From positions 487,201 through 551,200 of the forward strand of contig DDWV01000001.1 of NCBI GenBank assembly GCA_002347045.1: a stretch of 64,000 nt of DNA, written 5' to 3'. The notes under the pieces were generated by a model. The model saw only the letters and a program-made list of their open reading frames with translations, was not told the DNA's origin and searched no databases. The DNA comes from Candidatus Collierbacteria bacterium UBA2277 (GTDB taxonomy: Bacteria > Patescibacteriota > Microgenomatia > UBA1400 > MFAQ01). Shown in pieces: positions 3,095 to 37,538 of the stretch; within the stretch, counting starts at the first letter, position 1, and the number at the start of each line of letters is the position of its first letter. A program made the position numbers and the translations under genes.

Positions 3095-3135
3095 ACTTTG
3101 TATTTTTCTTAATTGATTATTTTGACGAAATAAAC

Positions 3136-3152
3136 CTGCCCGAAAAGGGCAG
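3136..3152 (-). promoter_or_regulatory. Short GC hairpin in the helicase-fusA intergenic region (attenuator or processing site)
   Basis: CTGCCC-GAAAA-GGGCAG, a 6-bp perfect stem. It sits in the 98-bp gap between the helicase stop (3193) and the fusA start (3094). The flanking U-tract is weak. Confidence 0.4.
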
Positions 3153-3192
3153 AATTTCTACAAGGCTAATTCTACCACAAGATAGCTAATTT

Positions 3193-5259
3193 TTATCTAT
3201 TCTTTCTAGACTTATGACGAGAACGGCTGTGTGAAGTGCCAGATTCTTGATTTTGTTTTTTTTGATCCTTTTTACCTTGGAAAAATAGATAAGGAGCAAT
3301 TTCCTTAACCCAGATTGGTTTGATTTCCATACAGTTACAAGCAAAAGCTCTGTCACTCGGACTAATAAAGATTTCTCCAGCGACAATAAAGGACCCGGGT
3401 CCGGGGACGTTGTTATAGTAAACAGAACTTGGGTGAATTGAGATTTCTCCTTTTGTACCATCAACTTTTCGGAATTGGTTTTTACCAGTGTTTTGGAGTA
3501 GGTTACCAATTAATCCAGCAGCAACTGCTTTTCCGATAGCGTCCTTGTTGATTACTGGTTTTGTTTTTGGATCGATAAATATTCCATGATTAGAAAGAAC
3601 ATCTATAAGGTCAAGGCGAACATTTTTTGCTTCTTCTAATGCTTTTTCATTGAGAAAGTTTTGTTTTGCCCATTCAGGATCAAATCCGCTTTTGTCATAT
3701 GCCTTCCAAACATTTAGAAAAACGACAAAGTCGGACTCATTTTCTCTTTTAAACTGTGCATGTGCCCTATCGGCGAGCATTTGCTCTTGTCTTTCTGAAG
3801 GTCTTAGGAAAATGTTTTTGCCATCTAAAAAAGAGGCAATTATAGTTATCTCGTTGACGCAGTTAATGTCTGGTCTTGCTGCTTCAATCACCATTCTGCC
3901 TAAGCGGGGCTCAAGACTAAGGTCAACAAGCCACTCTCCAATTTCTGTGATTTCATCATTGCCATCAAGAGCTCCAAGAAGCTTAAGAGTTTTTAGAGCC
4001 TGATGAATAGCTCCTTTCCCGGGGTGATCAATAAAATCAAAACCCTCTATGTCATGAATTCCGACTTTTTTCATACTTAAAACTACCTGAGTTAGTTCTG
4101 AGCGCTGAATCTCTGGCGTTTGAAAATATGGTCTTTCTCCCCTGCTGGACTCTGTAAATAGACGATAACAAATTCCTGGTGCTGTTCTACCAGCCCTCCC
4201 TTTTCGTTGTTCAAGACCACTTTGGGCATGTTTTGTAAGTACCAATTGTTCAATACCTGAGCGTGTGTCAAATTGAATTTGCTTGATGAGCCCTGGATCG
4301 ATGACGTGAATAACACCATCGATAGTAACTGAGGTTTCTGCAATGTTGGTTGAAACAATAATTTTCCGGTATTCTGATGGTGAAAAAATTCTATCTTGAT
4401 CGTCGGGAGATAGCTCGGCGTGAAGAGGAATAATCTCGACTCTTTCGCTGACAACCCTTTCCTTAATTTTATCGATAGTGCTGGTAATTTCACCTTTTCC
4501 AGGCATAAAAATAAGGATATCTCCTTCAATATTGTTGTCAATAATTGCTGAGACTTTGTCCACGGCACCTCTAATAAAGTCGTAGTTTTCGGGAGTGCTT
4601 CTTTCGTATACCACCTCAACAGGAAACATCTTTCCTTCAATTTCAACAGAGTTGTTTCTGTCTCCTAAGCCTATGTACTCAGCGAATCGATTTCTTTCTA
4701 TGGTAGCTGAGGTTACTATAATTCTTATAACATCAACGCCAGCACTACGACGACGCTCGTTGACCTCTTTTAGGAGGCCAAGACAGAGGTCAATGTTCAA
4801 ACTTCTTTCGTGAGCTTCATCTACCATTACGATCGAGTACTCGGAAAGAAAAGGGTCAAACTGGATTTTACGAAGTAAAACACCATCGGTCATAAAGGTG
4901 ATGTCTGTTTCTGGAGAGGTAACATCTTCAAAGCGAATGTGATATCCAACCTTTTCTCCAACCTCTGTACCCATCATCTCCGAGACTCTGGCTGTGGCAC
5001 TTCTGGTAGCTACACGACGAGGTTGGGTAACGGCAATTCCACCCTTGAGACCAAGTTCATTTCTTAGTTCCAAAAGAAGGGGTGGAAGACAAGTAGTCTT
5101 ACCGGACCCAGTTTCGCCGACTAAAACAAAATTTGTGTGATCTCTGAGTTCTTGTCTTAGTGACTCTCTTAGTTTGACAACAGGAAGAGCATCCAAACCT
5201 TCAAAGGCAGGTTCAATCGAACAGCTAAAGCGAATGTTTTCTACGTTTCTTGATGCCAT
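3193..5259 (-). CDS. DEAH-box ATP-dependent helicase of the HrpA/HrpB family, with a Ser/Arg/Lys-rich C-terminal tail
   Basis: 688 aa with the motifs GETGSGKTT (Walker A), VDEAHERSLNID (DEAH), TSATIE (SAT), QRKGRAGR, and an HA2/OB-like C-terminal region. The C-terminal tail reads KKDQKKQNQESGTSHSRSRHKSRKNR. Confidence 0.8.
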   Translation of the reverse strand: MASRNVENIRFSCSIEPAFEGLDALPVVKLRESLRQELRDHTNFVLVGETGSGKTTCLPPLLLELRNELGLKGGIAVTQPRRVATRSATARVSEMMGTEVGEKVGYHIRFEDVTSPETDITFMTDGVLLRKIQFDPFLSEYSIVMVDEAHERSLNIDLCLGLLKEVNERRRSAGVDVIRIIVTSATIERNRFAEYIGLGDRNNSVEIEGKMFPVEVVYERSTPENYDFIRGAVDKVSAIIDNNIEGDILIFMPGKGEITSTIDKIKERVVSERVEIIPLHAELSPDDQDRIFSPSEYRKIIVSTNIAETSVTIDGVIHVIDPGLIKQIQFDTRSGIEQLVLTKHAQSGLEQRKGRAGRTAPGICYRLFTESSRGERPYFQTPEIQRSELTQVVLSMKKVGIHDIEGFDFIDHPGKGAIHQALKTLKLLGALDGNDEITEIGEWLVDLSLEPRLGRMVIEAARPDINCVNEITIIASFLDGKNIFLRPSERQEQMLADRAHAQFKRENESDFVVFLNVWKAYDKSGFDPEWAKQNFLNEKALEEAKNVRLDLIDVLSNHGIFIDPKTKPVINKDAIGKAVAAGLIGNLLQNTGKNQFRKVDGTKGEISIHPSSVYYNNVPGPGSFIVAGEIFISPSDRAFACNCMEIKPIWVKEIAPYLFFQGKKDQKKQNQESGTSHSRSRHKSRKNR

Positions 5260-5411
5260 ACAATAAATATTTTTCTTTTTGAGAACTTATCGCCAAATTA
5301 AAGCTGCTATAGCTTGAGTAATCGGCTCTGATAGAATACCACAAATAAGCTTAAATATATATTATCGGTTTGAAACGTTTTAGAAGTAAGGTAAATTTAA
5401 CGAAGTTTTGT

Positions 5412-5888
5412 TTACCAGCGGAAGTGAGCGAAAGCTTTGTTGGCTTCGGCCATTTTGTGAGTATCAAGCTTCTTCTTGACTGCTGCACCGGCATTTTCGT
5501 GAGCTTCTAAGATCTCTGCAGCAAACTTCTCGGCGAGAGTTCTGGTTGGGTTGTTTGATCGGGCTTTTGCAGCGTTCAAAACCCAGCGAATGGCTAGAGA
5601 ATCACGACGCTCAGGTCTAATGGGGGATGGCACTTGGTAGGATGCACCTCCGACGCGTCGAGATCGAACTTCGATGGTTGGTTTGACGTTTTCAATGGCT
5701 TCAGTAAGATACTCAAGACCGTCCTTACCAGACTCTTCAGCAATGATTTCGATTGCACGATAAACTTGTTTGGCGGCAACTGTTTTTTTACCTTCGAGCA
5801 TACAACCGTTAATTATCTTGGCAACCAGCTGACTGTTGTAGATTGGGTCTAGCTGAATTCTTTTTGGAGGAGTTTTTTTTGATCTCAT
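5412..5888 (-). CDS. rpsG: 30S ribosomal protein S7
   Basis: 158 aa. MRSKKTPPKRIQLDPIYNSQLVAKIIN...AIRWVLNAA is typical S7. The gene is adjacent to rpsL. Confidence 0.93.
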   Translation of the reverse strand: MRSKKTPPKRIQLDPIYNSQLVAKIINGCMLEGKKTVAAKQVYRAIEIIAEESGKDGLEYLTEAIENVKPTIEVRSRRVGGASYQVPSPIRPERRDSLAIRWVLNAAKARSNNPTRTLAEKFAAEILEAHENAGAAVKKKLDTHKMAEANKAFAHFRW

Positions 5889-5898
5889 GTTTTATATA

Positions 5899-6318
5899 TT
5901 ACTTTTTGTCAGATGGGCGTTTGGTGCCGTATTTACTTCGACTTGAACGACGCTTTTCAATACCACCAGTGTCGAGTTTGCCTCTAACAATATGATATTT
6001 AACACCTGGCAAGTCACGAACGCGGCCGCCTCTAATAAGAACGATACTATGTTCAGCAAGATTGTGACCTTCACCCATGATGTAGGCAGTAACTTCTTGT
6101 TTGTTTGAAAGTCTAACACGGGCAACCTTACGCAAAGCAGAGTTAGGTTTCTTTGGGGTCATGGTTTTGACCTGAAGACAAACTCCTGCTTTTTGAGGAG
6201 ATATAGTATCGACCATTCTGCGCTTAATTGAGTTAAAACTTTTGCGAAGAGCAGTTGTTTTATTTTTTTTAGCGGCTGAGACACGGCCATGTTTGATGAG
6301 TTGATTAGTTGTAGGCAT
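5899..6318 (-). CDS. rpsL: 30S ribosomal protein S12 (with about a 15-aa insertion near the N-terminus)
   Basis: [12 protein letters not shown]...[18 protein letters not shown]...[21 protein letters not shown] is S12. An extra [18 protein letters not shown] segment is present relative to typical S12. Confidence 0.93.
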
Positions 6319-6337
6319 AATTCAGTTGTGTATTTTA

Positions 6338-9300
6338 TCAGATATTCTCAATCTTTGCTCTGAGCTTACTTGTAGGTACAAGTCGACCAATAATAACGTT
6401 TTCTTTCATGCCTATTAAGTGGTCTATTCTTCCTTGAACTGCAGAGTCGGTGAGGACTGAAGTGGTGTTCTGGAATGAGGCGGCTGATAGCCATGAGTCG
6501 GTGTGTAAAGCAGCTCTAATTGCACCAAGAATTAGGTTTGTGGCTGTTGCGGGCTCGCCACCTTCGGCAATAATAGCCTCATTTGATGTCTCATAGGCTC
6601 CTCGACTAATGATGTCTCCTGCGACGAGGGCTGTGTCACCAACAGAGTCTATGCGGACGTAATCACACATTTTACGAATAATTACTTCAAAGTGTTTATC
6701 GTGAATACTGATACCTTGAGACTCGTAGATTGACTGAGTTTCAGCAATAAGATGATCTTGAGTGGCTCGTAAACCTTTGATTCTAAGAAGCTCCTTGATG
6801 TCAACTCCACCGGAAGATAGCTGAGTACCGACAGAGACCAAGTCTCCATCTGAGACTTTGAGAGTCATAGCGAGAGGAATTAAGTATTCTTTCTTTTCCT
6901 CTTTACTCTTGCTTCCAGGGGTAATGATGACCAGATTGCCATTCTCTGTTTCAGTAACTTTTACTTTTCCGGAGACTTCAGCAATTGGGGCAACAAGTTT
7001 TGGCGTTCTGACTTCGAGTAACTCAGTAACTCTTGGAAGACCTTGGGTAACGTCAACTCCAGCAGCTCCTCCTGAGTGTTTGGTACGCATAGTTAATTGA
7101 GTGCCTGGTTCACCAATGGACTGCGCGGCGATGATACCTACGGGGTCACCAACTATAGCTGGAGCGTTTGTAGCAGTATTGTGACCATAACACTTGGCAC
7201 AAAGACCGAAACGGAGTTTACAAGTAATAGGCGACCTCACCTCGACCTCCTTGACACCAGCTGCTTCTATCTCGGCAGCAAGCTCTTCGGTAATCATTTC
7301 ACCAGCAGGAACAATAACCTTTTTGGTTTTTGGAGAAATAATCTTTTTGACGGTGTATCGGTGAACTATTCGCTTGGCGAATATCTTGGATCTTGTTTCA
7401 GCCGAGATAGTGATGAACTCATCGGTACCACAGTCTTCTGCACGGATAATTGCATCATGACTAACATCAACTAAACGTCGAGTGAGGTAACCAGCGTCGG
7501 CTGTACGAAGAGCGGTGTCTGTAAGACCTTTTCGAGAACCTCTGATTGAAGTAACATACTCAAAGATTGACAGACCTTCACGGAAGTTACCTTTTATTGG
7601 AAGTTCAATTAGATTACCAAGAGGATCAGCGATAAGTCCACGCATAGCGGAAAGCTGATTAATGGAGTTTTTGGTAACACGACCTGAGGCAGAGTCGATG
7701 ACTAAACGAATTGGGTTTGTGGGTGAGAAGGTGGCCCATGTCTTTTCGGCTAGGTCTTCGGCGGTATCCATCCACATACGGATAGTAAGCTTGCGACGTT
7801 CATCGTCGGTGATTAAACCTAGTTTATAGTTTTCTTCAATTTCTTCAGCTTTTTTGTTTCCAGCAGCGATGACTGAGGCTTTCTCTGGGTAAACTTCATT
7901 ATCTGTGGTTGCAAAAGAGAAACTACTAACTGTTGCATATTCGAAACCTGTGTCTTTTACAGCATCAATGAGCTTAACTACACGTTTTGTGTCTAAAGTC
8001 TTAATGGCTTGAGTAAATAAAGCGGAGATATCTTTACCAGTAAAGCTCTTGTTTTGGAAATCCCATTCTTTTGGCAAGAGCTGATTGAAGATAATACGAC
8101 CAACTGTAGTATCGGTCATAACCATACTGTCGGCATTGAGACGAACAGTAATTGGCTGTCTAACTTCAATTGCTTTGTTTTGGTATGCAGTGATGGCTTC
8201 TTGTTGACTAGACATAGGGCTTTGGTAAGCAGTAAGAGTCTCGTCTATGGAAGTAAGATAGAAAACACCAACAGCCATTTCTTTTCTTGATGGAATATTG
8301 ACACTTTGACCAGAGCTTGGTTTAAGGAGGTTAAATTGAGGAAGCATGTGTTTTTTAGCCTCACGAATAGCTTTTTTAGTTAAAGGAACGTGAACAGCCA
8401 TTTGATCTCCATCAAAGTCTGCATTGAAACCTTCACAGACAACTGGGTGAAGACGAATAGCAGAGCCATCGACAAGTACCGGCAAGAAGGCTAGAATTGA
8501 AAGCTTGTGTAGTGTAGGAGCACGGTTGAGCAGGATTGGATGATTTTTGGTGATTCTTTCTAGAATATCAAAAACCTCTGGCTGACGTTTTTCAATTAAT
8601 GTTTTAGCAGCTTTGACGTTTGGAGCTAGGTCCTGTTTTATGATCTCATGAAGAACGAATGGCTTGAACATTTCTAGTGCCATGTCTTTTGGAAGACCAC
8701 ACTGATTTAGTTTTAGTTCTGGACCAACAATGATAACGGAACGGCCCGAGTAATCGACACGTTTACCGAGAAGATTCTGACGGAAACGACCCTGCTTTCC
8801 ACGTAACATGTCTGAAAGAGACTTGAGAGTTTTACCTGTTCTTGATCTTCTAGTTGAACGAGCTTGAGAAGAATCTATTAACGAGTCAACTGCTTCTTGA
8901 AGCATGCGTTTTTCGTTTCTTAGAATGATTTCAGGAGCTCCAAGATCAATAAGGTGTTTAAGACGGTTGTTGCGGTTTATCACGCGACGGTAGAGATCGT
9001 TTAGGTCGGAAGCGGCGAAACGGCCACCTGAAAGCTGTACCATAGGTCGAAGATCTGGAGGAATAACAGGAAGAACACTAAGAACCATCCACTCTGGTTT
9101 TACCTTGGAATCAAGTAAACCGCGAACAACTTGAAGTCGTTTTGTGGCCCTAAGACGTTTTGCTTCAGAGTTACTAAAAGAGTCCTCTTTTAACTTTATG
9201 GCGAGCTCAGGAAGATTTACTTTCTTCAAAGCTTCTAAAATTGCTTCAGAACCCATACCAGCAACCATCCAATCAACTAGGTCATACTCAGCAAGTTTTG

Positions 9301-23609: not shown

Positions 23610-25274
23610 TTATACCTCTAGAAGGATTGCAACCACGAGAGGACGACGTTGTGTGTGGTCAAAAGCAAAGTGTTCTAACTGAGCCTCAATCTTTTTTCTA
23701 ATAAAGCCCAAATCTGTTGCCTGGCCTTTTAATCCTTTTAGACAAGAATGGACTTGTTTTTTGGCATCATTTATCAGGTCTTGAGATTCTTTTTGGTAGA
23801 CAAAGCCTCGTGAGATAATTTCGACTTCTCCGGAAATTTGAGAGTTATCTCTTCTTATAGGAACGATAGCTAGCAAAACACCGTCTTCAGCCATTACTTG
23901 GCGATCGCGTAAAACTACAGCACCGACATCTCCAATACCCAGACCATCGACATAAACGTTTCTCGTTTCGATACGAGGACCTTCTTTAACTGAGCCATTT
24001 TCTAAGATAACTGACTGGCCATCGGATAAAACAAATACTTTTTCTGGATCGAAATTTATGTCTTTAGCAAGATCTTTGTAAAGCATCATGTGGCGGATAT
24101 TTCCTCCGATTGGGATAATATTTTTGGGTCGAACTAACTGGGCCAGAAGGGCAATATCTCCTCGATAACCATGACCAGAAACATGGAGATTTTCTGATGT
24201 TCCTGAGTAGACGACATCGATATTGTGCTTGTAAAGGGTGTCCATAAGATCAAAAATGTCAGCGTCGTTTCCTGTGCCAGGAATAGCGTTTGAGCTAATA
24301 ATTACCTTGTCACCTTTTTTGAGTTTGGCAATCCGATGTTCGTTGTTTGCTAGTCTGTGCATTGCAGAACCGGATTGGCCCTGAGAGCCAGATACAATGA
24401 CGGTGACCTGGTTGGGGGGCAAAGTTTGAACCTGCTGTGGTTTAATCAGAACACCTTTAGGAATTTTTATGAAACCAGTTTTCGCAGCAGCTTCAATATT
24501 TTGCTCGACAGAACGACCGATAATGGCGACTCTGCGGTGATATTTTATTGAAGCGTCTATCGCCATTTGGAAACGAGAAATTGAAGAGGACATGCCGGTA
24601 AAGATTACTTTTCCTTTGGTGTTGCTGATCTCACTGTCAATTGCTTTTAGAAGCGATCTTTCTGAGGGACAAAAACCAGATTTTTCGATACCAAGACAGT
24701 CTGAGAGAAGGAGGTCTACACCATTGTTACCAGCAACTGCCATGGCACCAAGGTCTGGGGGGAGATTGTCAATTGGGGTTAGGTCAAACTTATAGTCTGC
24801 ACCATGATAGACAGTACCGCCTGGGGTTTTAATTAATAGATGATGACAGTTTGGAACTGAGTGGGTAGAGTGTATGAATTGGATATGAAAAGGCCCAAGA
24901 GTTAAATTTCCATCAACGTGAGTCATTTTGTTGAGAATACCAAATTCACGTACTTTAATCTCGGCCATGGCGATGACGAGCTTGCCTCCAAATACTTGAA
25001 CGTCTTTAAGACGAGGAAGAATGTATGCAAGTCCTCCGATGTGATCCATGTGAGGATGTGTAAGTACGATACCGTGGAGTTTTTTACCTGGTTTTTCAAG
25101 ATAGCTAATGTCTGGAATGACAGCGTCGACTCCGAGAGCGTCGTCTTTAGGGAATCCCATTCCACAGTCGACAACAAGTTGATCGTTACCGTATTCGTAG
25201 ACGTACATGTTCTTCGTGACGTCACCGACACCACCAAGAGGAATAATTTTTAGAGGATGTTTTTTATTATCCAT
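23610..25274 (-). CDS. rnj: Ribonuclease J (metallo-beta-lactamase / beta-CASP)
   Basis: 554 aa with HGIVLTHPHMDHIGG (the HxHxDH motif), a beta-CASP domain and the RNase J C-terminal domain. Confidence 0.9.
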   Translation of the reverse strand: MDNKKHPLKIIPLGGVGDVTKNMYVYEYGNDQLVVDCGMGFPKDDALGVDAVIPDISYLEKPGKKLHGIVLTHPHMDHIGGLAYILPRLKDVQVFGGKLVIAMAEIKVREFGILNKMTHVDGNLTLGPFHIQFIHSTHSVPNCHHLLIKTPGGTVYHGADYKFDLTPIDNLPPDLGAMAVAGNNGVDLLLSDCLGIEKSGFCPSERSLLKAIDSEISNTKGKVIFTGMSSSISRFQMAIDASIKYHRRVAIIGRSVEQNIEAAAKTGFIKIPKGVLIKPQQVQTLPPNQVTVIVSGSQGQSGSAMHRLANNEHRIAKLKKGDKVIISSNAIPGTGNDADIFDLMDTLYKHNIDVVYSGTSENLHVSGHGYRGDIALLAQLVRPKNIIPIGGNIRHMMLYKDLAKDINFDPEKVFVLSDGQSVILENGSVKEGPRIETRNVYVDGLGIGDVGAVVLRDRQVMAEDGVLLAIVPIRRDNSQISGEVEIISRGFVYQKESQDLINDAKKQVHSCLKGLKGQATDLGFIRKKIEAQLEHFAFDHTQRRPLVVAILLEV

Positions 25275-25472
25275 ATTTTTATTTATTTAATTACTTTATA
25301 TTGATCAACACAGATACTCTGCTTGAACACGCCAGCCAAAGACCAGCCTAACTTAATTTATTTTACACTTACTAAGGAAATTATTTGGAACCGGAGCTAC
25401 TATAAGACTCTTGGGTATAGGTAACTTAATCTTAGTCAAAGTCAAAATTCTATATGCGTGTATTATACACTG

Positions 25473-26537
25473 TTACCATTTTGGAAGGAATGACTTGATG
25501 TTGTCGGCATTTAAACTGACTGACTTGGCCTGACCCGTAACTATCATGAGAGCAACTTTGCGTACAATACCTTCGATAGTTCTATTTAAAGTACGAATAC
25601 CAGCATCGTAGCCTAACGGACGAATAATACTGGGCCAGAGATCAGGATTAATGGTGATTAAAGCAGGATCCATACCGGCGGCCTCAAGAGCCTTAGGGAA
25701 TAAGTATTCCTGAGCAATGTGTGTTTTCTCATCGTCGGAGTAGGATGGCATCTGAATAGGCTCAAGACGATCCATAACAGCGGTAGCTAGGTTACCAGTG
25801 TTGTTGGCTGTAGCGATAAACATAACCTCAGATAAATCGACCGGATAATCAATGAAGTGGTCAAGGAAACGGTTGTTTTGAGAAGGATCTAGAAGTTCAA
25901 CTAAAACACCCATGATATCGGCCCTGGCCTCTTCAGTGACACGGTCAATTTCGTCAAGAAGAATAATGGGGTTCTTAACCCCGGAGTCACAGAGTGCTCT
26001 GACGACATATCCAGGCTGTGCTTCGAGATGAAGTCGTGACTCTCCACGAAGATCTCTTGCAGAACCAAGACCTCCAAAGGGAATACGAGCTATGGGGCGA
26101 CCTAAGGCCTCTGAAAGAGCGTAAGCGAAAGTTGTCTTTCCAGTACCCACGAGACCTACTAGACAGATGATTGGAGCACGTACAATGCCCTCGTTTCTTG
26201 CAGCACGAAGCTTGATAACTGACATGTACTCAAGAATGCGTTCTTTAACGTTGTCCATGCCGAAATGGTTTTTATCAAGAATGGCTTTGATTGTGGTAAG
26301 GTCTATGGGACGCTCCACTCTCTTTGCCCAAGGAACCTTTGCAACCCAGTCGATGTAGTGACGAAGCTTTTCGAACTCTTCGGAAAAAAATCCTTGACTG
26401 GAGAGACGATCTAGACGGGAGATGATTTCTGAGATGCTATTTTTGAGCTCTGGAGGCATCTCAATGGAATCTATCTTCTGACGAAGTGCAGCAAGAGACG
26501 AGTCGGCGGAGTTTTGATTCTGGGCAGAAGGATCCAT
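25473..26537 (-). CDS. Lon-like AAA+ ATPase module with no protease domain
   Basis: Carries the Lon pre-AAA helix (LRHYIDWVAKVPW...DKNHFGMDNVKERILEYMSV), Walker A LVGLVGTGKTT, Walker B ILLDEIDRV and a sensor/alpha-helical lid. It ends at the position where the Lon peptidase domain normally begins. The preferred start is the ATG at 26535-26537 (MDPSAQ). The ORF-track extension to 26600 runs through a terminator hairpin. Confidence 0.8.
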   Translation of the reverse strand: MDPSAQNQNSADSSLAALRQKIDSIEMPPELKNSISEIISRLDRLSSQGFFSEEFEKLRHYIDWVAKVPWAKRVERPIDLTTIKAILDKNHFGMDNVKERILEYMSVIKLRAARNEGIVRAPIICLVGLVGTGKTTFAYALSEALGRPIARIPFGGLGSARDLRGESRLHLEAQPGYVVRALCDSGVKNPIILLDEIDRVTEEARADIMGVLVELLDPSQNNRFLDHFIDYPVDLSEVMFIATANNTGNLATAVMDRLEPIQMPSYSDDEKTHIAQEYLFPKALEAAGMDPALITINPDLWPSIIRPLGYDAGIRTLNRTIEGIVRKVALMIVTGQAKSVSLNADNIKSFLPKW

Positions 26538-26565
26538 GAACTTATTATATACAAGTTTGACGTTG

Positions 26566-26591
26566 AAAAAAAACCGGGTCCTGAGACCCGG
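26566..26591 (-). terminator. Intrinsic terminator between the small membrane protein gene and the Lon-AAA gene
   Basis: On the plus strand: AAAAAAAA, then CCGGGTC-CTGA-GACCCGG (a 7-bp GC stem). On the minus strand the stem is followed by T8, ending about 28 nt upstream of the Lon-AAA ATG. Confidence 0.8.
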
Positions 26592-26601
26592 TGTTTGCAT
26601 A

Positions 26602-27045
26602 TTAAATTGTGGACATAATAAATAACAGGAATAACACTAATAAAATAAACAATGAAACGAATATTGTCGCAGCATAGTTTGATGTGGTAGATATTAAGGT
26701 GACTTCAACAGGAGTCTCTGACATAACCGTGATAGAGACTTCTCCATCACTTTTGGCTACCCACAAACCAACCGAAAGGGTGTCTGTGCTTTGAAAAATT
26801 GAGCCGGTGACATACTTCCCTTCAATTGAAGCCGACCCTGAAGAAACTCTATAGTATCCTGTACTACTCGCCGATACTACTTTAACTTCCCGCGAGTCAC
26901 TCTGAACAAGAGCTGACCTAAACTTGCTCACGGAAAAGTTTTGGACTGTCTGAGGTTTTTGATATTTATCTTTTAAAATCAAAAAATCTAAACCTGCAGC
27001 GACAATAACCAACATAATTAAAAATATCCAATATTTCTTTTCCAA
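26602..27045 (-). CDS. Small membrane protein with TM helices at both termini, function unknown
   Basis: 147 aa with hydrophobic helices at both ends. Bracketed by intrinsic-terminator hairpins at 27126-27156 and 26566-26591. Confidence 0.45.
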   Translation of the reverse strand: MEKKYWIFLIMLVIVAAGLDFLILKDKYQKPQTVQNFSVSKFRSALVQSDSREVKVVSASSTGYYRVSSGSASIEGKYVTGSIFQSTDTLSVGLWVAKSDGEVSITVMSETPVEVTLISTTSNYAATIFVSLFILLVLFLLFIMSTI

Positions 27046-27125
27046 TTTTTCCTCCTTATTTTCTTCTTGGCTCTAAAAGTGCTTGGTGGTAGGGATTTTA
27101 TTACTTTCTGGCATTTGTGTCAACA

Positions 27126-27156
27126 AAATACCCCAATTAAATTTGGGGTATTTTTT
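27126..27156 (-). terminator. Intrinsic terminator downstream of pnp
   Basis: Stem AAATACCCCA, loop ATTAAATT, stem TGGGGTATTT, a 10-bp perfect stem. It is T-rich on both sides (TTTTTTGCT on plus, TTTTGTTG on minus). Confidence 0.75.
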
Positions 27157-27179
27157 GCTAAGGCCTAGTTTATTCTATA

Positions 27180-29348
27180 TCAACGACTGTCTCTAAAATT
27201 ACTGTATTTTTGACGATTACTACCGGAGTGACTGCCACGATCTCCTGAAGACCTTGACCCTTCGGGGGTGTTAGGTCGCTCTGCTCTTATAGGAGACTCT
27301 CCCTCTTTGAGCATTGTTAGATTTACACGACCCATGGAGTCTACCTCGTAGCAACGAACTTCGACCTTATCGCCTATCTTCATAGATTTAAATGTTTCAG
27401 GCTGGACTCGAGAAACATGGACTAGTCCATCTTTACCTGGAAGGATGTTGACAAAGGCTCCAAAGGCTTCGACACGAGCGACGGTGCCTTCGTATGTCTT
27501 TCCAACTTCGGCTTCAGCAACGATAGAGTCGATGTAAGCTACGGCAGCGTCAACTTTTGGCTGATCAGAACCAGTGACTGTAACCGTGCCATCTTCTTCT
27601 ATGTTTACTTCTACCAAGAAGTCATCTTGAATCTGATGGATTATTTTTCCACCTGAACCAATGACATCACCAATTTTGGATACTGGAACTTTTGTAGACA
27701 CAATCTTTGGAGCGTACTGAGAGATCTTTTCACGAGGAGCGTCGAGAGCGTCATTCATGATCTTGAGAAGAGTCATGCGGGCACGTTTAGCTTGTTCAAC
27801 GGCCTTGACCAATATATCAGCATTGATTCCGGTAACTTTGACGTCCATCTGAAGGGCGGTAATTCCCTCGACAGTACCGGCAACTTTAAAATCCATGTCA
27901 CCTAAGTGGTCTTCAAGGCCACAGATGTCCGTGAGTGTAACAAATTTTTCACCTTGTGCAATAAGTCCCATGGCCATTCCGGCTACGGGTCTTTTAATCG
28001 GAACTCCTGCGTCCATTAATGAAAGAGTTGAGCCACAGATCGAAGCTTGAGAAGTTGAGCCATTACTTGACATTACTTCTGAAACTACACGAATAGCATA
28101 AGGAAAGTCTTCCTGATTTGGAAGGACTGGCATAAGGGCACGTTCGGCTAAGGCACCATGGCCAATCTCTCGACGACCTGTTCCAGGACGTTTGGTTTCT
28201 CCAGCAGCGTATCCAGGCATGTTGTAATGATGCATGTAGCGTTTGGTCTCCTCGCCTTTCATACCATCAATAAGCTGTTCTCTGGCAGGAGAGGCAAGGG
28301 TGATGACAGAAAGAACGTGAGTCAAACCTCTTTTGAAAAAAGCGGACCCGTGGGTTCGAGGAAGAACTCCAACTTCGATATCGATAGGGCGGATTTCTTC
28401 CATATCACGACCATCAGGGCGTTGGGATTTCTCGAGAATGTTCTTGCGGGCCAAGTCTCTTAACATGTTGTCTGCAACTTCTGCAATCTGACTTGGGTTG
28501 TGTTCGGGATGGGCAGTGCAGATAGCAGAGATGATTTCGCTGGCTTGAGTACCTGTCTTAGTAGCTTCATTTTTTAGAAGTTCTTCAACGTTTCCAAGTT
28601 CGTCCTTAACAAATTTTGCGATCTCTGGGTCGATCTCAACAGGGGTGATGGTACGTTTTTCTTTGCCATTGGCTTTTGCAAATTTTGCAATTGCGTCTGC
28701 AACTGTGTCAACATACTCTTGTGCATATTTAAGAGCTCCGGTTACCTTTTCGTCTGTAACTTCGGAAGCCCCAGCCTCAACCATACAAATACCACCTTTG
28801 GGGCCAGAAACTACCAAGTCTAGGGGAGAAGTTTCTTTTTGTTCTTGAGTAGGATTAACAATGTACTCACCTTCTGGAGTCATGCCTATACGGACAGAAC
28901 CTATTGGACCTGACCATGGATAGTCGGACAAGGAGATGGCGGCGGAAGAAGCAATAATAGCTAAGATTTCAGGTTCTTCAACACCATCATAGGAAAGTGG
29001 AGAGGCAAGAAGCTGAACTTCGTTTCGAGAGGCTTGATCAAAAAGAGGTCTTATCGAACGGTCGATAACACGGCCCGTAAGTATCTCGTTTTCTGAAGGA
29101 CGACCTTCGCGTTTTATGAAACGGCTAGAGCTAATTACTCCGCCAGCATAGAGTTTTTCTTGATAGTCAATGGAAAGAGGAAAGTAATCAATCCCCTCTT
29201 TGACTCTATTGGATGCTACTACAGATGCAATGACGACTGTGTCGCCACATCTTGCTGTAACAGAACCTGAGGCCTGGGCACCAAAGCGGCCGGTCTCGAT
29301 TGTAATTGTTTTACCATTGAGAACAATGGTGGTTTGTGGATATGTCAT
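27180..29348 (-). CDS. pnp: Polyribonucleotide nucleotidyltransferase (PNPase)
   Basis: 722 aa with two RNase PH domains, KH and S1 domains, and a Gly/Arg/Ser-rich C-terminal tail. Confidence 0.95.
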   Translation of the reverse strand: MTYPQTTIVLNGKTITIETGRFGAQASGSVTARCGDTVVIASVVASNRVKEGIDYFPLSIDYQEKLYAGGVISSSRFIKREGRPSENEILTGRVIDRSIRPLFDQASRNEVQLLASPLSYDGVEEPEILAIIASSAAISLSDYPWSGPIGSVRIGMTPEGEYIVNPTQEQKETSPLDLVVSGPKGGICMVEAGASEVTDEKVTGALKYAQEYVDTVADAIAKFAKANGKEKRTITPVEIDPEIAKFVKDELGNVEELLKNEATKTGTQASEIISAICTAHPEHNPSQIAEVADNMLRDLARKNILEKSQRPDGRDMEEIRPIDIEVGVLPRTHGSAFFKRGLTHVLSVITLASPAREQLIDGMKGEETKRYMHHYNMPGYAAGETKRPGTGRREIGHGALAERALMPVLPNQEDFPYAIRVVSEVMSSNGSTSQASICGSTLSLMDAGVPIKRPVAGMAMGLIAQGEKFVTLTDICGLEDHLGDMDFKVAGTVEGITALQMDVKVTGINADILVKAVEQAKRARMTLLKIMNDALDAPREKISQYAPKIVSTKVPVSKIGDVIGSGGKIIHQIQDDFLVEVNIEEDGTVTVTGSDQPKVDAAVAYIDSIVAEAEVGKTYEGTVARVEAFGAFVNILPGKDGLVHVSRVQPETFKSMKIGDKVEVRCYEVDSMGRVNLTMLKEGESPIRAERPNTPEGSRSSGDRGSHSGSNRQKYSNFRDSR

Positions 29349-29449: not shown

Positions 29450-29740
29450 TTATTTAGCGGAGTCGCGCAGTTGACTGTTAATGTTTAGAGACTTTGTAAC
29501 TTCGAGATAATCTTTAGTGTTGGACTTGGCTAGATAGTTTAGGAGGCGACGTCTTTTAGAGATAATCTTTAGCAAGCCACGACGTGAATGATTGTCTTTT
29601 TTATGAACTTTTAAATGGTCGGTGAGTTCTTCAATCTGTGCAGAAAGAAGGGCAATTTGCACGCGAGGAGAACCAGTGTCTTTTTCACTAGCGGCAAAGT
29701 TTTTAATGATGTCTATTTTTGTGTCTGATTTAAGAGCCAT
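29450..29740 (-). CDS. rpsO: 30S ribosomal protein S15
   Basis: 96 aa in a typical S15 helical bundle, with a GSPRVQIALLSAQIEELTDHLKVHKKDNHSRRGLLKIISKRRRLLNYL motif. Confidence 0.9.
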   Translation of the reverse strand: MALKSDTKIDIIKNFAASEKDTGSPRVQIALLSAQIEELTDHLKVHKKDNHSRRGLLKIISKRRRLLNYLAKSNTKDYLEVTKSLNINSQLRDSAK

Positions 29741-29782: not shown

Positions 29783-30667
29783 TTACTGCTTAACTCGAAA
29801 TATTTTAGGTTTGTTCCAGTCTGAAGGAACTGGAACATCCTCTTCTTCAGGGAGAGGGATGTTTTCTTCTTCAGGGATGGTAGTGTCAGTGTCCTCAAAG
29901 AAAGGTGGCTGAGAGAACTTTGGGAAGGTTGGCTTTTGAGAAGGGGTCTTGGCACCAGCTCGCATCAAAAATGCGACTTGAGCAAAGGTGTCAGCGGTAA
30001 GTCGGGGGCTAGAAAGATTGTTTGTGGCGCTATAGATATTTGCGAGAAGGTTTTCGGCAACAGAGGAAGAGATTTTTAGACCAATGTTTTCGACAAAACA
30101 TGAAACTAGTTCTGAAAAAGAGCTTACGTCGGAGTGAAAGTGATTACCAGTAAAAGAGGAGGGGCTTAGGTTGGTGTTGAGACTTAGAATATCAGCGTTG
30201 TCCAAAAATGGCTTCTCGTCTGCATATATTTTGCCTAACTCTTCGAGAGAGTTTATGCCAAGAGTGATTACTAGATCTGCAGAAGCACCTTTGTAAGAAA
30301 ACTTGACATTGGAAGTATCAGGGACGGGAGAGTTTGGTTTTGGCTTAATTAGAAGGTAAAACTTACCATCGTCTCGGACATCGTAGTCAACTTTGTCGAG
30401 ATCTTCTTCCTTGTAGTCAAATGAGATAACTAGATTTCGACTGCCAATACTATCTGTAATCTCAGATACTCCAACTATGTCTGAGTCAAGCTTAATTTCT
30501 GTACCACAGCCGATTTGAGAGTTTTTACCCGAGTCCTTAAACGCAAGATGTAAAGCAACTCCAGCATCAACAAGATCTTTTTCGGGATTTGGAGGAAGAA
30601 CAACAATAACTGATTTCGCGGCGTTAACGTTTGTTTTTATAGGTGTTATGTCTATTTTTTCTTCCAT
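29783..30667 (-). CDS. DHH-family (NrnA-like) protein with degenerate catalytic motifs, a probable pseudoenzyme
   Basis: VIVVLPPNPEKDLVDAGVALHLAFKDSGK aligns to the NrnA N-terminus (H.H..PD.DA.GS..AL...L...GK). The metal-binding residues are replaced: DHH becomes ISFDYKEE and the DHHA1 GGGH becomes KGASAD. It occupies the rbfA/nrnA/truB position between infB and rpsO. Confidence 0.5.
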   Translation of the reverse strand: MEEKIDITPIKTNVNAAKSVIVVLPPNPEKDLVDAGVALHLAFKDSGKNSQIGCGTEIKLDSDIVGVSEITDSIGSRNLVISFDYKEEDLDKVDYDVRDDGKFYLLIKPKPNSPVPDTSNVKFSYKGASADLVITLGINSLEELGKIYADEKPFLDNADILSLNTNLSPSSFTGNHFHSDVSSFSELVSCFVENIGLKISSSVAENLLANIYSATNNLSSPRLTADTFAQVAFLMRAGAKTPSQKPTFPKFSQPPFFEDTDTTIPEEENIPLPEEEDVPVPSDWNKPKIFRVKQ

Positions 30668-33481: not shown

Positions 33482-34333
33482 CTAGAGGGTAGAGTCAAGT
33501 TTTTTGACCAGATCTTTTTGCTTTCCGGAGAGTCTGGTCGGAAACTTGATGACATAGCGTATATAGAGATCTCCGTGACGGTTGCTTTGGAGATGTTTTA
33601 TACCTTTACCCGTAAGGCGGATAACAGTCTCTGGCTGAGTCCCTTGACGAACTTTTATCTTTAGATCACCATCGAGAGTAGGGATCGCAGTTTCTCCTCC
33701 GAGTATAGCAAGAGTAAAAGGAATTTCGTGATTAACGATAACATCTGAACCTTCTCGCTTGAATATTTTACTTGGCTTAACGTCAAAGCTAATGTCAAAA
33801 TCTGAGTAGCGAATTCGAGTTCCTTCGTCGGCTCCGGCTGGAATTTTTACTGTGTACTGCTTTCCTTGATGGACAATGGTTTTTTCTGCCCCATGGACGG
33901 CGTCATTAAAGTCTATTTTTAGGGAGTAATGGGGCTTTTGAGGGCGTTGCGATCGAGATGCTCCTCCAAAAAAGCCACTAAAAATATCAAAGGGGTCTGA
34001 GAAACCTCCTGCCCCGCCAAAAAGATCTTCAAAGTTTATGTTTCCACCTGTGGTGTAGTAACTACCAAAAGGATTGCCCGATCCGGCCCCTGGATTAAAC
34101 CCGGCGCCCCCGCCAAAAGCTGCATGACCAAATTGATCAAATTTAGCTTTCTTTTCGGGGTTACTTAAGACTTCGTAAGCTTCATTGATTTCTTTGAATT
34201 TTTCGTGTGCGTCTGAAGACTTGTTTTTATCTGGATGCCACTTGAGGGCCAATTTCCTGTAAGCAGACTTAATTTCTGCCGCAGTTGCAGTTTTTGAAAC
34301 ACCTAGAACATCGTAGAAATCGCGTGTAGCCAT
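33482..34333 (-). CDS. dnaJ: J-domain co-chaperone (class B DnaJ/CbpA-like, no zinc-finger domain)
   Basis: A J-domain with HPD ([13 protein letters not shown]), a Gly/Phe-rich linker and C-terminal substrate-binding domains. No CxxCxGxG repeats are present. Confidence 0.8.
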
Positions 34334-34390: not shown

Positions 34391-36292
34391 CTATTTAACT
34401 ACTTCGCCTTCCTCTGCTTTTTCTGAGTCTGAGCTTGTGTCTTCTGATTTTTCTCCTTCAGCTTTTGACTCATCTGGCTTGTCTTTTTCTCCGGCTGCTT
34501 TATATAGTGCTTCAGCGTGTTTTTGAACAAGCTCGGTAGCTGACTTTAACTTGTTGTCAAGATCTTCAAGTGTGACATCGGCTTTTTTAACTTCTTCTTC
34601 AAGTTCCGAAAGTGATTTCTCTATCTCTTCTTTTGCACTTGAGTCAAATTTGTCACCAGAGTCTTTGAGAACTTTTCGAGTTTGAATGATTAAAGTGTCA
34701 GCCTCATTTTTCTTGTCGACAAGCTCTTTTTTCTTCTTGTCTTCTTCGGCAAATTTTTCGGCTTCTTGTTTCATTCTCTCTACTTCTTCATCAGAGAGGT
34801 TGGTAGCGTTTTTGATAGTAATCTTTTGCTCTTTACCGGTTGCTTTGTCTTTGGCGGAGACATTTAGGATACCATTGGCATCGATGTCAAAAGTAACTTC
34901 GATCTGAGGAACTCCACGAGGGGCGGCGGGGATACCATCAAGAACGAAACTGCCTAGAGTTTTGTTGTCGGCGGCCATCGGGCGCTCTCCCTGAAGAATG
35001 TGGATCTCAACTTGAGGCTGGTTGTCTGAAGCGGTTGAGAACACCTGAGATTTACTTGAAGGAACGGTAGTGTTGCGCTCGATAAGAGGAGTCATAACAC
35101 TTCCCATGGTCTCAATGCCTAGAGTAAGAGGAGTAACATCTAGAAGCAAGACGTCCTTAACGTCACCAGAGATAACACCACCCTGAATTGCTGCTCCTAG
35201 AGCAACGGCTTCATCAGGATTAACTGATTTGTTTGGCTCTTTTCCGAAGAAGTCTTTGACTACTTGCTGAACTTTGGGCATGCGTGTCATTCCACCGACC
35301 AAAATGACTTCTGCTATATCAGACTTACTGATCTTGGCATCGGCCAAAGCCTTTTTACATGGTTCGATGGTTTTTTGAATGAGGTCATCGACTAGCTCTT
35401 CTAGCTTTGCTCTGGTGATCTTCATTGTGAGATGCATTGGCTGACCATCGACCTGAGTAATGAATGGCTGATTGACTTCTGTTTCTGTAGAACTAGAGAG
35501 GTCTATTTTTGCCTTTTCAGCGGCATCTTTAATACGCTGAAGTGCTTGTTTGTCTTTCCCAAGATCAACACCATTCTCTTTTTTGAATTCGGCGACAATG
35601 TACTCAATAATTTTGTGATCGAAGTCGTCTCCTCCGAGGAATGTGTCTCCATTGGTTGACTTTACTTCAAATACGCCATCTCCTAGTTCAAGAATTGAGA
35701 CATCGAATGTACCCCCACCCAAGTCGTAGACAACGACTGTTTCATTTTTCCCTTTGTCTAGACCGTAGGCAAGAGCGGCAGCTGTTGGTTCATTGACAAT
35801 TCTCTGAACGTTTAATCCTGCGATTTCTCCTGCTTGTTTGGTTGCTTGGCGTTGAGAGTCGTCGAAGTATGCAGGAACAGTAATAACTGCATCGGTAACT
35901 GTTTGACCAAGATATGCCTCGGCATCTGCTTTTGCTTTTTGGAGAATTTTGGCAGAGATCTCTTGAGGTGTGTACGACTTATCACCTATCTTAATGATGG
36001 CTGAGCCATCTTTTCCAGCTTCGATGGTGTAAGGAGCCATTTCCATGGTCTTTTGAGCTTGTTTTCCAGAAAACTTTTGGCCCATGAGTCGCTTTACACT
36101 AAATATAGTGTTGGGAGCGTTTAGAACCATCTGACGTTTTGCAACATCTCCAACTAGATTTTTAACTGGTTCAACAATTGAAGGGAAAGTGTTTCTTCCT
36201 TCAGCTGTAGGAATGATTTTGGCGACGCCTCCTTCCATAACAGCAATAGCACTGTTTGTGGTTCCGAGGTCTATACCTATAATTTTTGACAT
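34391..36292 (-). CDS. dnaK: Chaperone DnaK (Hsp70)
   Basis: 633 aa with [14 protein letters not shown] and a DLGGGTFD motif, plus a C-terminal lid. Confidence 0.95.
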
Positions 36293-36325: not shown

Positions 36326-36772
36326 TTATTTATCTCCAGAGCCTACCTTGACTCTTGCAGGACGGAGGACTTTTTCGTAAAGTAAATAACCTTTTGTAAG
36401 TGTCTCTGTTACTACGTCTTTTTTACCAGAGACTACTTCAATACAGTCCATGGTGAGAGGATCAAATACCTGACCATCAGAGACGATGGGGGCAAGACCT
36501 TCTTGAGAAAGGGTGTTTAGGAACTGAGAAGTAACCATGTTTAGCCCAGCGTCATTGAGGTGTTTTTGGGCTAGCTCAAGAGAGTCAATATTGAGAAGAA
36601 TTTTTTCCATTAGGGTAGCGTTGGCAAACTGCATAATTTGGGACTGAGCTTCTTTGAAGCGACGATCTTGGTTTTTGTAGTCGGCCAGGACTCTTTTGTA
36701 GTTGTTGTCGAGTTCTTCGACTTTTAACTTGAGTTCTTTAATTTCGGATGAGTGATCTATTTTTTTTACCAT
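36326..36772 (-). CDS. grpE: Nucleotide exchange factor GrpE
   Basis: 148 aa with a coiled-coil N-terminus and the GrpE beta-sheet C-terminus. It overlaps hrcA by 7 nt. Confidence 0.88.
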   Translation of the reverse strand: MVKKIDHSSEIKELKLKVEELDNNYKRVLADYKNQDRRFKEAQSQIMQFANATLMEKILLNIDSLELAQKHLNDAGLNMVTSQFLNTLSQEGLAPIVSDGQVFDPLTMDCIEVVSGKKDVVTETLTKGYLLYEKVLRPARVKVGSGDK

Positions 36773-37491
36773 TCTTGAGCTATTTGATTTACTAAATTTG
36801 CAACATATCTTACAAAGGGTATGTTTCTATCATACTCTTGGCGGCTAGAACCTATGATTCCCAGACTTCCACGACGGCCCCCTAAATTGATATCGGCAAA
36901 GACACAACTTACTGGTCTAAAAAGACTTACTCCCATTTCATCACCGACTAATATATGGATTGGAGAGTTGTTACCTGCCCTGTTGAAGATGTCTAAGAGT
37001 CTTTGATGTTGATCTAGAAGATAAAAAACCTCTCGGGCTACTTCGTGATCTTGAAACTCAACGTCATTAAAAACATTTGCGTATCCAGCGTGATATGTCT
37101 GTCCACCTTCTGTGGTAGCGATACAGAGGGCTTTGGTTCTTTCGGAAAGCACCTTGGTTGCTTCGTGAAGGAGATCGTCACGATTGTAACGATGGTCCCA
37201 TACTCGAGACTTAACATTTACTTCTTCGGCAACTGAGAGCTCTTTTTCTTTCATGAGCTCATTGATGTAAAACTTGATTGCCATGGGGGTTGGAACTCTA
37301 CCTGAGGAGGTGTGAGGTTGGGCTAGATAGCCTTTGTCTTCAAGTGCGGCCATTTCATTGCGGAGAGTCGCTGGGGAAACCCCAAGTCGATATTTGTTCT
37401 CAAGAGTGACTGAACCAACTGGTTCAGCTGTTAGCGTAAACTCTTCGACAATAGTTTTTATGATTTGTATCTGTCTTTCTGTTAGGTCCAT
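36766..37491 (-). CDS. hrcA: Heat-inducible transcription repressor HrcA
   Basis: LTERQIQIIKTIVEEF...GSVTL...LGVSPATLRNEMAALEDKGYL is a winged-helix HrcA N-terminus. The preferred ATG is at 37489-37491. The ORF track extends the start to a TTG at 37503. Confidence 0.85.
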   Translation of the reverse strand: MDLTERQIQIIKTIVEEFTLTAEPVGSVTLENKYRLGVSPATLRNEMAALEDKGYLAQPHTSSGRVPTPMAIKFYINELMKEKELSVAEEVNVKSRVWDHRYNRDDLLHEATKVLSERTKALCIATTEGGQTYHAGYANVFNDVEFQDHEVAREVFYLLDQHQRLLDIFNRAGNNSPIHILVGDEMGVSLFRPVSCVFADINLGGRRGSLGIIGSSRQEYDRNIPFVRYVANLVNQIAQEW

Positions 37492-37511
37492 AAGGCAACT
37501 CAAATAATGAG

Positions 37512-37538
37512 TTAGCAGTAATATAGCATGAGTGATAA
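37512..37538 (-). promoter_or_regulatory. CIRCE-like inverted repeat (HrcA operator) upstream of hrcA-grpE-dnaK-dnaJ
   Basis: The sequence is TTAGCAGTA-N9-GAGTGATAA, a 15/18 match to the CIRCE consensus TTAGCACTC-N9-GAGTGCTAA. It lies 21-47 nt upstream of the hrcA ATG. Confidence 0.6.

Follow-up and report, generated by a model that had tools for sequence, protein, structure and literature searches.

A stand-alone Lon-type AAA+ ATPase gene without a protease domain, and its family in Patescibacteria

The window analysed here is a 64-kb stretch of DNA (64,000 nucleotides) from Candidatus Collierbacteria bacterium UBA2277 (contig DDWV01000001.1), and all positions are counted from its first letter unless another locus is named. 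The gene of interest, called X below, lies on the minus strand at 25473-26537 (ATG at 26537) and encodes 354 amino acids (aa). As an earlier note on this DNA had described, it is set between the genes for RNase J (rnj) and PNPase (pnp), near rpsO, and Pfam and orthologue annotation confirms these neighbours. X contains the ATPase part of a Lon protein and neither of the domains that normally flank it. Its reading frame spans 25473-26600, and ATG 26537 is taken as the start because the homologues are 351-357 aa long. A 375-aa version starting from ATG 26600 was rejected: apart from exceeding this length, it would cross a terminator, and its ATG is missing in the sister strain L095. The features of X are the following.

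25473-26537, minus strand: X, a stand-alone LonA-type AAA+ ATPase of 354 aa, composed of NTD3H, an alpha/beta ATPase domain and a Lon lid (profiles, alignment, model)
26193-26537, minus strand: X residues 1-115, the C-terminal part of the LonA HI(CC)/NTD3H helical region (alignments, model)
26385-26396, minus strand: family-specific loop QGFF, at the position of Yersinia Lon M284 (alignments)
26133-26156, minus strand: Walker A, GLVGTGKT (GL-G-GKT in the family, GPPGVGKT in canonical Lon)
26010-26051, minus strand: pore loop 1, LRGESRLHLEAQPG, with H170 at 26028-26030; low-confidence in the model
25944-25967, minus strand: Walker B, IILLDEID
25767-25769, minus strand: arginine finger R257 (DRLE), invariant in the X family
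25593-25595, minus strand: sensor-2 arginine R315, within the family motif PLGYDAGIR

In Pfam searches, X matches AAA (residues 124-261) and Lon_lid (residues 286-339), while neither LON_substr_bdg nor Lon_C (PF05362) is detected. The Lon-type AAA+ module and Lon lid (PF00004 and PF22667) follow the NTD3H helices. The N-terminal LAN or substrate-binding domain (PF02190) is absent from X, which enters the TIGR00763 (endopeptidase La) profile at position 248, and the S16 peptidase domain with its Ser-Lys dyad is absent as well. The TIGR00763 match covers only positions 248-572 of 795 and scores 321.1 bits (cut-off 608.05); NF008053 gives 244.3 bits (cut-off 891), which is below the equivalog threshold. 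In alignments with solved LonA and LONP1 structures, the AAA+ part of X is matched end to end at 34-40% identity (E ~1e-71), and the alignment with E. coli Lon 235-584 (PDB 6n2i) stops at the AAA/protease junction. Pfam, the TIGR00763 positions and this alignment thus agree with the earlier description of a stand-alone Lon AAA+ gene that ends at the junction, and the peptides LRHYIDWVAKVPW and HFGMDNVKERILEY quoted in that description are present in X. The AlphaFold2 (AF2) model of X (pLDDT 80.9, pTM 0.77) has its helices at residues 3-24, 29-44, 51-67, 80-90 and 95-113, and the AAA modules of Lon and LONP1 are its top Foldseek matches (TMq ~0.8).

The lack of the two flanking domains was checked beyond the gene itself using hidden Markov models (HMMs) made from 61 canonical Lons. 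They detect neither an S16 nor a LAN domain in X or in the six-frame translations of the window and of 26 X-family loci, and a full-length Lon run as positive control gave 400 and 218 bits for the two domains. Searches for other affiliations returned little: no Clp model matches X above threshold (ClpA reaches E 1.6e-4, in the P-loop region only), PADLOC gives only weak P-loop matches for anti-phage defence, and Rfam finds nothing around X at gathering thresholds, with chance-level matches over the terminators (E <=1).

The motif set of the AAA+ HCLR clade is present in X, namely: Walker A and B, sensor-1 Asn, trans arginine finger, sensor-2 Arg and the pre-sensor-1 beta-hairpin. At 38-83% identity within the X family, G128, G131, G133, K134, T135, D195, E196, N245, D256, R257 and R315 are invariant. 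These include sensor-1 N245, the trans-acting finger R257 and sensor-2 R315. Walker A (GLxGxGKT in the family) and Walker B (LLDE) are invariant or nearly so, as are F/Y228 and D230 of the pre-sensor-1 hairpin (FLDHFIDYPVDLSEV in X) and the NTD3H residues Y61 and W64. The ATPase motifs are as well conserved in the X family as in canonical Lon. Since the trans arginine finger is invariant, X can be argued to be an oligomeric ATPase.

Pore loop 1 behaves differently. Y398 and I399 of Lon grip the translocating substrate chain (PMC7239648). The residue corresponding to E. coli Lon Y398 is Tyr in 58/58 canonical Lons and H170 in X, and the position holds H, F, Y, S, N, K, R, Q, E or I across the X family. 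Among 29 diverse family members the loop reaches an entropy of 1.78 bits per site, above their average of 1.41; in the 58 canonical Lons the value is 0.44. In other words, the segment that canonical Lons conserve most is the one under least constraint in the ATPase core of the X family, and this relaxation is selective for pore loop 1. Two positions of the loop, 172 and 174, have acquired conserved acidic residues ([DE]-A-E-P-G). A second family feature, the aromatic loop QGF[YF] at residues 48-51, occupies the channel-entrance position of Yersinia Lon M284, a residue with a described role at that entrance (PMC7239648). Because the gripping tyrosine is replaced and the loop is unconstrained, a classical threading unfoldase is unlikely, and the term 'unfoldase' applied to X in the earlier note is doubtful. 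The released pore loop and the missing chamber together argue against processive threading.

X is a member of a length-conserved family (~342-400 aa) present in Collier-, Levy-, Shapiro-, Dojka- and 'Nomura'-bacteria. The best 120 matches to X are all 313-455 aa long (nearly all 351-357), 65-100% identical to it and composed of AAA and Lon_lid only, and the organisms named among them are Collierbacteria, Microgenomates and Patescibacteria. Short relatives at 39-51% identity were recovered from a search of 1.84 billion cluster representatives, and Lon_C is missing from 10/10 of those tested. The best 120 matches to a family member 39% identical to X are 342-507 aa long with Lon_C in 0/120, and the named ones belong to Dojkabacteria, Nomurabacteria and Patescibacteria. 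In the longer members, the extra tails are of low complexity only; degenerate protease or LAN remnants were considered for P0169, P0145, P0151 and others and rejected, as the extensions are Q/P/S/T/N-rich. A profile scan of genome contigs made with a mixed alignment was dominated by patterns shared with canonical Lon, and family members came to 12/80 loci. The same search of representatives had giant Lon proteins of ~1000-1700 aa (P0121-P0137) as its top scorers, with 2-3 tandem Lon-type AAA modules followed by a single S16 domain; some of them have repeated Lon lids (Pfam run on P0121, P0122, P0125 and P0126).

A phylogeny of the AAA domain, one of the checks proposed earlier, puts the protease-less sequences together. 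The tree covers 195 Lon-type AAA modules and was made by neighbour joining without bootstrap; in it, all 35 signature-bearing protease-less sequences fall into a single clade on a stem of length 0.17, joined by two further sequences that have no protease domain either. By this tree, a single loss of the N-terminal substrate-binding and S16 protease domains from LonA would have given rise to the X family. Comparison with L095 gives X a ratio of non-synonymous to synonymous substitution rates (dN/dS) of 0.022; that of pnp is 0.024. The X family is under very strong purifying selection, as strong as that on PNPase. A gene identical to X lies on the independent contig L006, and same-length homologues number in the hundreds and come from many assemblies; X is a real stand-alone family member, not a truncated lon. 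Genes of the family carry the database labels 'Lon protease', 'ATP-dependent Lon protease' or 'AAA family ATPase'. None of the curated NCBIfam/Pfam models is specific to the family, and our literature search found nothing on a protease-less Lon of the Candidate Phyla Radiation (CPR)/Patescibacteria.

Upstream of X, the window has two terminators and a promoter-like element.

27124-27161, minus strand: intrinsic terminator T1, after pnp (-17.5 kcal/mol, z -3.6)
26565-26592, minus strand: intrinsic terminator T2, with an 8-bp stem, 4-nt loop and T-run, ending a membrane-gene cassette (26592-26573 folds at -15.5 kcal/mol, z -3.7)
26538-26549, minus strand: TATAAT (26549-26544) and the 6-nt spacer AAGTTC before the X ATG, with no Shine-Dalgarno (SD) sequence; putative leaderless promoter

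A terminator was required to have a GC-rich hairpin and a T-run and to be more stable than shuffled sequence. Both T1 and T2 pass, so the two strong terminators reported in the earlier note stand, and both hairpins are kept in L095 with only their loops changed. Terminators also trail pnp in L001 and L007, while the L097 hairpin at this place has no T-run. Terminator scan and folding found no terminator after X. In the Collierbacteria loci, a -10 hexamer lies past the pnp terminator, at a distance of exactly 6 nt from the X ATG, and there is no SD; the distant L097 likewise has a -10 box 6 nt before this ATG and no SD. Such a box (at least 5/6 matching, 5-7 nt before the ATG) is found at 9/21 X orthologous loci, versus 7/73 control genes of the same loci. 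This recurrence gives comparative support to the leaderless transcript that had been suggested, and X mRNA is probably leaderless and made from its own promoter. SD sequences are almost absent from the window, ~41/45 long genes having none. Hexamers resembling a -10 box stand 5-8 nt ahead of the start codon in several window genes, and ftsK orthologues have them in 4/13 loci; this lineage may make common use of leaderless or SD-independent initiation.

We interpret X, with moderate confidence, as belonging to a CPR housekeeping family of non-proteolytic, ATP-driven proteins derived from Lon, with its own transcription and no relation to the membrane protein encoded next to it. X would have a transcript of its own, probably leaderless, that begins beyond the pnp terminator; the protein would assemble into a ring or spiral and hydrolyse ATP. 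Most likely it would act as a non-proteolytic chaperone, remodeller or switch instead of a processive threading unfoldase, because there is no chamber to feed and the gripping tyrosine is replaced. In this it would be similar to Lon itself, for which chaperone activity independent of the protease has been reported. It would engage its clients by way of the NTD3H entrance loop QGF[YF] and the now acidic pore loop [DE]-A-E-P-G.

Several points weigh against this interpretation. The pore-loop position is still aromatic in some lineages (F in 10/156 sequences, Y in 7/156), and H170 could still contact substrate, which would make threading possible. Formation of a hexamer without the protease domain is an assumption. 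An S16 peptidase acting in trans, or a co-resident canonical Lon, is possible elsewhere in the genome. The single clade comes from a neighbour-joining tree that has no bootstrap support and, at the thresholds of the promoter scan, no -35 element was found for X.

The neighbours of X bring up another possible role, in RNA decay. The conserved genes next to it, assigned by Pfam and orthologue annotation, and the spacer that separates X from rnj are the following.

27180-29348, minus strand: pnp (PNPase), conserved upstream neighbour
23610-25274, minus strand: rnj (RNase J), conserved downstream neighbour
29450-29740, minus strand: rpsO
25275-25472, minus strand: 198-nt spacer between X and rnj, with the rnj promoter (-10 TATAAT, 25467-25462) and a conserved leader of ~180 nt

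The order nusA-infB-orf-rpsO-pnp-X-rnj-ftsK-HTH (HTH, helix-turn-helix gene) is found in Collierbacteria, Levybacteria, Shapirobacteria and further metagenome-assembled genomes, down to ~46% X identity. One Dojkabacteria and one 'Nomurabacteria' genome have rpsO-pnp-X-udg-...-rnj(-ftsK), where udg encodes a family-4 UDG. Since the X-udg pair recurs in Dojkabacteria, 'Nomurabacteria', L009, L012 and L021, the ancestral CPR order was likely rpsO-pnp-X-udg-rnj-ftsK. The placement by RNA-decay genes, which the earlier note took to be an undescribed arrangement, is shared well beyond this genome: it is an old order found across the CPR, one that includes udg and ftsK.

It is from this order that X can be proposed to be an accessory ATPase of RNA decay, working with PNPase and/or RNase J in a degradosome-like assembly or as a chaperone for these enzymes or for basic RNA-binding proteins. 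In its favour, pnp lies directly upstream of X in 13/22 informative lineages (Microgenomates, Dojkabacteria and a 'Nomurabacteria' genome) at X identities of 38-50%, and rnj lies within ~3 kb downstream in 14; furthermore, the X pore loop is acidic and the PNPase encoded here has a basic R/S-rich tail. However, X is located elsewhere in 7 lineages. In three of these (L016, L019 and L093/94) it is divergent from groES-groEL, and in one it lies between genes for a deaminase and a peroxiredoxin. The block itself mixes RNA, DNA-repair and division genes, holding udg, ftsK and the HTH/RodZ-like gene as well, and so reads as inherited gene order instead of a functional operon. Among the listed homologues, no fusion protein joins X to an RNA enzyme. 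The terminators after pnp in Collierbacteria, the L097 hairpin (despite its missing T-run), the -10 box of X and the promoter and leader of rnj also count against a shared transcription unit: as X, the membrane gene and rnj have their own promoter signals, and pnp, the membrane gene and X are set apart by terminators, adjacency alone is weak evidence for a role in RNA decay. We therefore hold this role to be improbable. The same low probability is given to a bolder version, in which X would be a founding Lon-derived AAA+ machine without protease, an essential CPR chaperone or remodeller for basic RNA-binding clients and the ATPase of a PNPase/RNase J RNA-decay assembly. There, the acidic, tyrosine-less pore and the aromatic NTD3H loop would handle the PNPase tail, RNase J or ribosomal proteins.

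The loci in which X is divergent from groES-groEL are as follows.

L016, 3884-5880: X and groES-groEL, divergent
L019, 3763-5841: X and groES-groEL, divergent
L093, 2-1637: X and groES-groEL, divergent
L094, 4851-6873: X and groES-groEL, divergent

In these three lineages the intergenic region is ~90-160 nt long and shares an TTGTCAAG motif, with no CIRCE. Heat-shock control of X through CIRCE/HrcA was considered and rejected, as no CIRCE lies upstream of X in any locus, these included. The only CIRCE-like inverted repeat of the window, TTAGCAGTAATATAGCATGAGTGATAA (3 mismatches, 37512-37538), is found just upstream of hrcA (36766-37503), which is followed by grpE (36326-36772), dnaK (34391-36292) and dnaJ (33482-34333).

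The spacer between X and rnj was also examined. As the earlier note had stated, it holds no decayed protease: there are stops in all three forward frames, the HMMs find no protease similarity, and the region is the conserved rnj promoter and leader, a promoter-like box, GTGTATAAT, lying just past the X stop codon. The rnj leader is 93-96% identical to that of L095, versus ~88% for the flanking coding DNA; it has a GC hairpin with G-U/C-G changes, and in L007 it stays attached to rnj despite an inserted antisense gene. No Rfam family matches the spacer, which may be a regulatory leader of rnj; the predicted transcription start lies near 25455. Its counterparts are given below.

L001, 9066-9262: counterpart of the rnj spacer
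L007, ~8540-8721: counterpart of the rnj spacer
L095, 3417-3595: counterpart of the rnj spacer

The junctions of X also serve as insertion points for genes restricted to single lineages. L007 has an antisense open reading frame (ORF) of 456 aa (7098-8468), and in L091 an HTH_17/PIN_3 pair, DUF2079 and DUF4012 lie between pnp and X (2751-6995). A zeta-toxin-like gene follows rnj in L001 (10923-11507). Further upstream in the block, the slot between infB and rpsO, which holds rbfA/truB in many bacteria, is occupied by a conserved gene without Pfam match, 25-67% identical across loci.

window, 29783-30667, minus strand: gene between infB and rpsO
L001, 3867-4763: gene between infB and rpsO
L003, 3561-4451: gene between infB and rpsO
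L096, 3012-4340: gene between infB and rpsO

Six X-bearing loci (L011, L013, L014, L016, L018 and L020) have GenBank third-party annotation (TPA) titles reading 'uncultured Gammaproteobacteria bacterium', yet their X is of the CPR type; L013, L014, L018 and L020, though not L011 or L016, have the full CPR syntenic block, and the taxonomic labels look wrong. Elsewhere in the window, a gene for an HrpA/DEAH-type helicase (DEAD, Helicase_C, HA2_C and OB_NTP_bind; 3193-5259, minus strand) sits within the str operon region, between fusA (974-3094) and rpsG/rpsL (5412-6318).

X could also be the ATPase subunit of a split Lon, feeding an S16 or other peptidase encoded separately, as ClpX does for ClpP and HslU for HslV. 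It stops exactly at the AAA/protease junction, its ATPase motifs are intact, and the C-terminal FLPKW is conserved among close relatives. On the other hand, no peptidase gene is found within 6-10 kb of X in any of the 26 loci, nor in the 64-kb window, and pore loop 1, which translocation needs, is the part of the ATPase core under least constraint. The extreme C-terminus is not conserved in the wider family (...QMY, ...PNY, ...SPG, ...DTV, ...NII), some members of which have long disordered C-terminal tails. A split Lon is thus quite unlikely in our judgement.

A link to DNA is brought up by the gene for family-4 UDG, which directly follows X in five lineages, overlapping it or separated from it by at most 35 nt; X and udg are probably co-transcribed there.

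L009, 1443-2084: udg after X
L012, 7060-7692: udg after X
L021, 3406-3993: udg after X
L096, 8217-8873: udg after X
L097, 8137-8748: udg after X

X would then act on DNA or on DNA-associated proteins, together with UDG and/or FtsK, whose gene is part of the conserved block. In canonical Lon, the AAA region mediates DNA binding. However, the basic patch reported for DNA binding by E. coli Lon is kept only in part in X (K72, R73 and R76), and the conserved acidic residues of the pore loop are unfavourable for nucleic acid in the channel. In addition, udg is not adjacent to X in Collierbacteria, this window included (in L001 it is found at 1-493). We consider such a DNA- or nucleoid-linked ATPase a slim prospect.

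The earlier note had also paired X with a small protein having two transmembrane (TM) segments, encoded just upstream.

26602-27045, minus strand: gene for a 147-aa protein, with a TTG start, an AAGGAGG SD at 27057-27051 and hydrophobic segments at residues 5-25 and 124-147
27095-27123, minus strand: promoter-like site of this gene, TTGACA-17-TAAAAT, 11/12 matches (L095 counterpart TTGACA ... CATATAAT)

The reading frame with its two hydrophobic segments is upheld by our analysis; the pairing is not. A functional pair, for example a membrane-tethered unfoldase, would fit with the adjacency of the two genes on the same strand in both the window and L095, and the small protein has a faint similarity to FtsH_ext (E 0.029), below any threshold. 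Against this, its homologues form only three clusters among 5.8 billion proteins, and the gene is known from this strain, its twin contig and two close relatives. Among 90 loci searched by tblastn it occurs only in the identical twin locus L006, so that it is missing from the other family loci; L095, where it is also present (1716-2352), has an X that is 97% identical, versus 56-58% for the membrane protein. Across the gene, DNA identity to L095 falls from ~88% to 59-70%. It evolves ~10x faster than X (dN/dS 0.25 vs 0.022), with a dS of 1.47 where its neighbours have 0.65-0.76. It has its own promoter and a strong SD, of the kind that most genes here do without, and terminators on both sides, lying between the pnp terminator and the X promoter. 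These results identify the membrane gene as a real, fast-evolving and lineage-specific inserted cassette and not as a partner of X, and a joint function appears very remote. The strong SD in an SD-poor genome, along with the hypervariability, suggests a foreign origin or allelic replacement of a surface-exposed protein.

That X is an artefact or pseudogene, a lon cut short by assembly error, frameshift or decay, which the earlier note had named as the way its claim could fail, is practically ruled out by the identical gene on L006, the hundreds of same-length homologues, the dN/dS of 0.022 and the rnj leader found directly downstream.

The X family is of wider interest. Selection on X is as strong as on PNPase in what are the most gene-poor free-standing bacterial genomes known. 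The family provides a natural experiment on what a Lon AAA+ ring does without a degradation chamber, and distinguishes the parts that are constrained (the nucleotide and inter-subunit motifs) from the part that is released (the gripping loop). The 'Lon protease' labels on its genes could make Patescibacteria look richer in proteases than they are when their metabolism is reconstructed. Although the organisms are uncultured, X should be biochemically tractable, because it is a small soluble protein and because crystals have been obtained of an E. coli fragment that covers the same region.

Among known systems, X most resembles LonA (MEROPS S16, TIGR00763) as represented by E. coli, Y. pestis and M. 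taiwanensis Lon and human LONP1, with which it shares the C-terminal helices of NTD3H/HI(CC), the AAA+ module and the Lon lid. Walker A and B, sensor 1, the arginine finger and sensor 2 are kept, as are the aromatic and acidic residues of the pre-sensor-1 beta-hairpin (F228 and D230), and Y61 and W64 of X are the equivalents of LonA Y294 and W297. Unlike LonA, X lacks the LAN/N domain, the long coiled-coil helix and the S16 protease domain. The LonA pore-loop-1 sequence HRRTY[IV]G becomes xS[RK]xxx[DE] in the X family, with no conserved aromatic residue, and further signatures that set the family apart are GLxGxGKT, PLGYD and W301. In the current classification into Lon A, B, C and BA, all Lons have an ATPase domain followed by a protease domain (PMC9569914). 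In the X family, the ATPase half alone is kept under selection across several CPR classes, whereas Lon has so far been classed as a fused ATPase-protease.

The E. coli Lon fragment 235-584 is nearly co-extensive with X, residues 12-351 of X corresponding to fragment residues 8-339. This fragment is a stable product of limited proteolysis that binds ADP and packs in crystals as an open hexameric spiral (PMC6722904). It is, however, a fragment made in the laboratory from a protease whose pore loop is canonical, whereas X is a natural gene product under selection.

ClpB, a partner-free AAA+ chaperone of the HCLR/Hsp100 group, and ClpX and HslU, which are separate ATPase subunits, offer another comparison, as stand-alone AAA+ rings without a fused peptidase. 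The HI(CC) and AAA regions of LonA resemble H1/M and NB2 of ClpB (PMC6722904). These three proteins keep conserved aromatic pore loops, which the X family is without, and the peptidase-docking elements of ClpX and HslU have no conserved counterpart in the family. X does not fit the two-gene protease pattern of ClpXP or HslUV, as there is no peptidase domain near X in the 26 loci and its C-terminal residues are unconserved. Finally, LonC, or Lon-like-MS, of Meiothermus taiwanensis is described as a protease without ATP-powered unfolding (PMC3391209). LonC is, like X, a Lon derivative that gave up one of the two activities, and the two are reciprocal: the protease is what LonC has retained, whereas X has the ATPase motifs and no protease.

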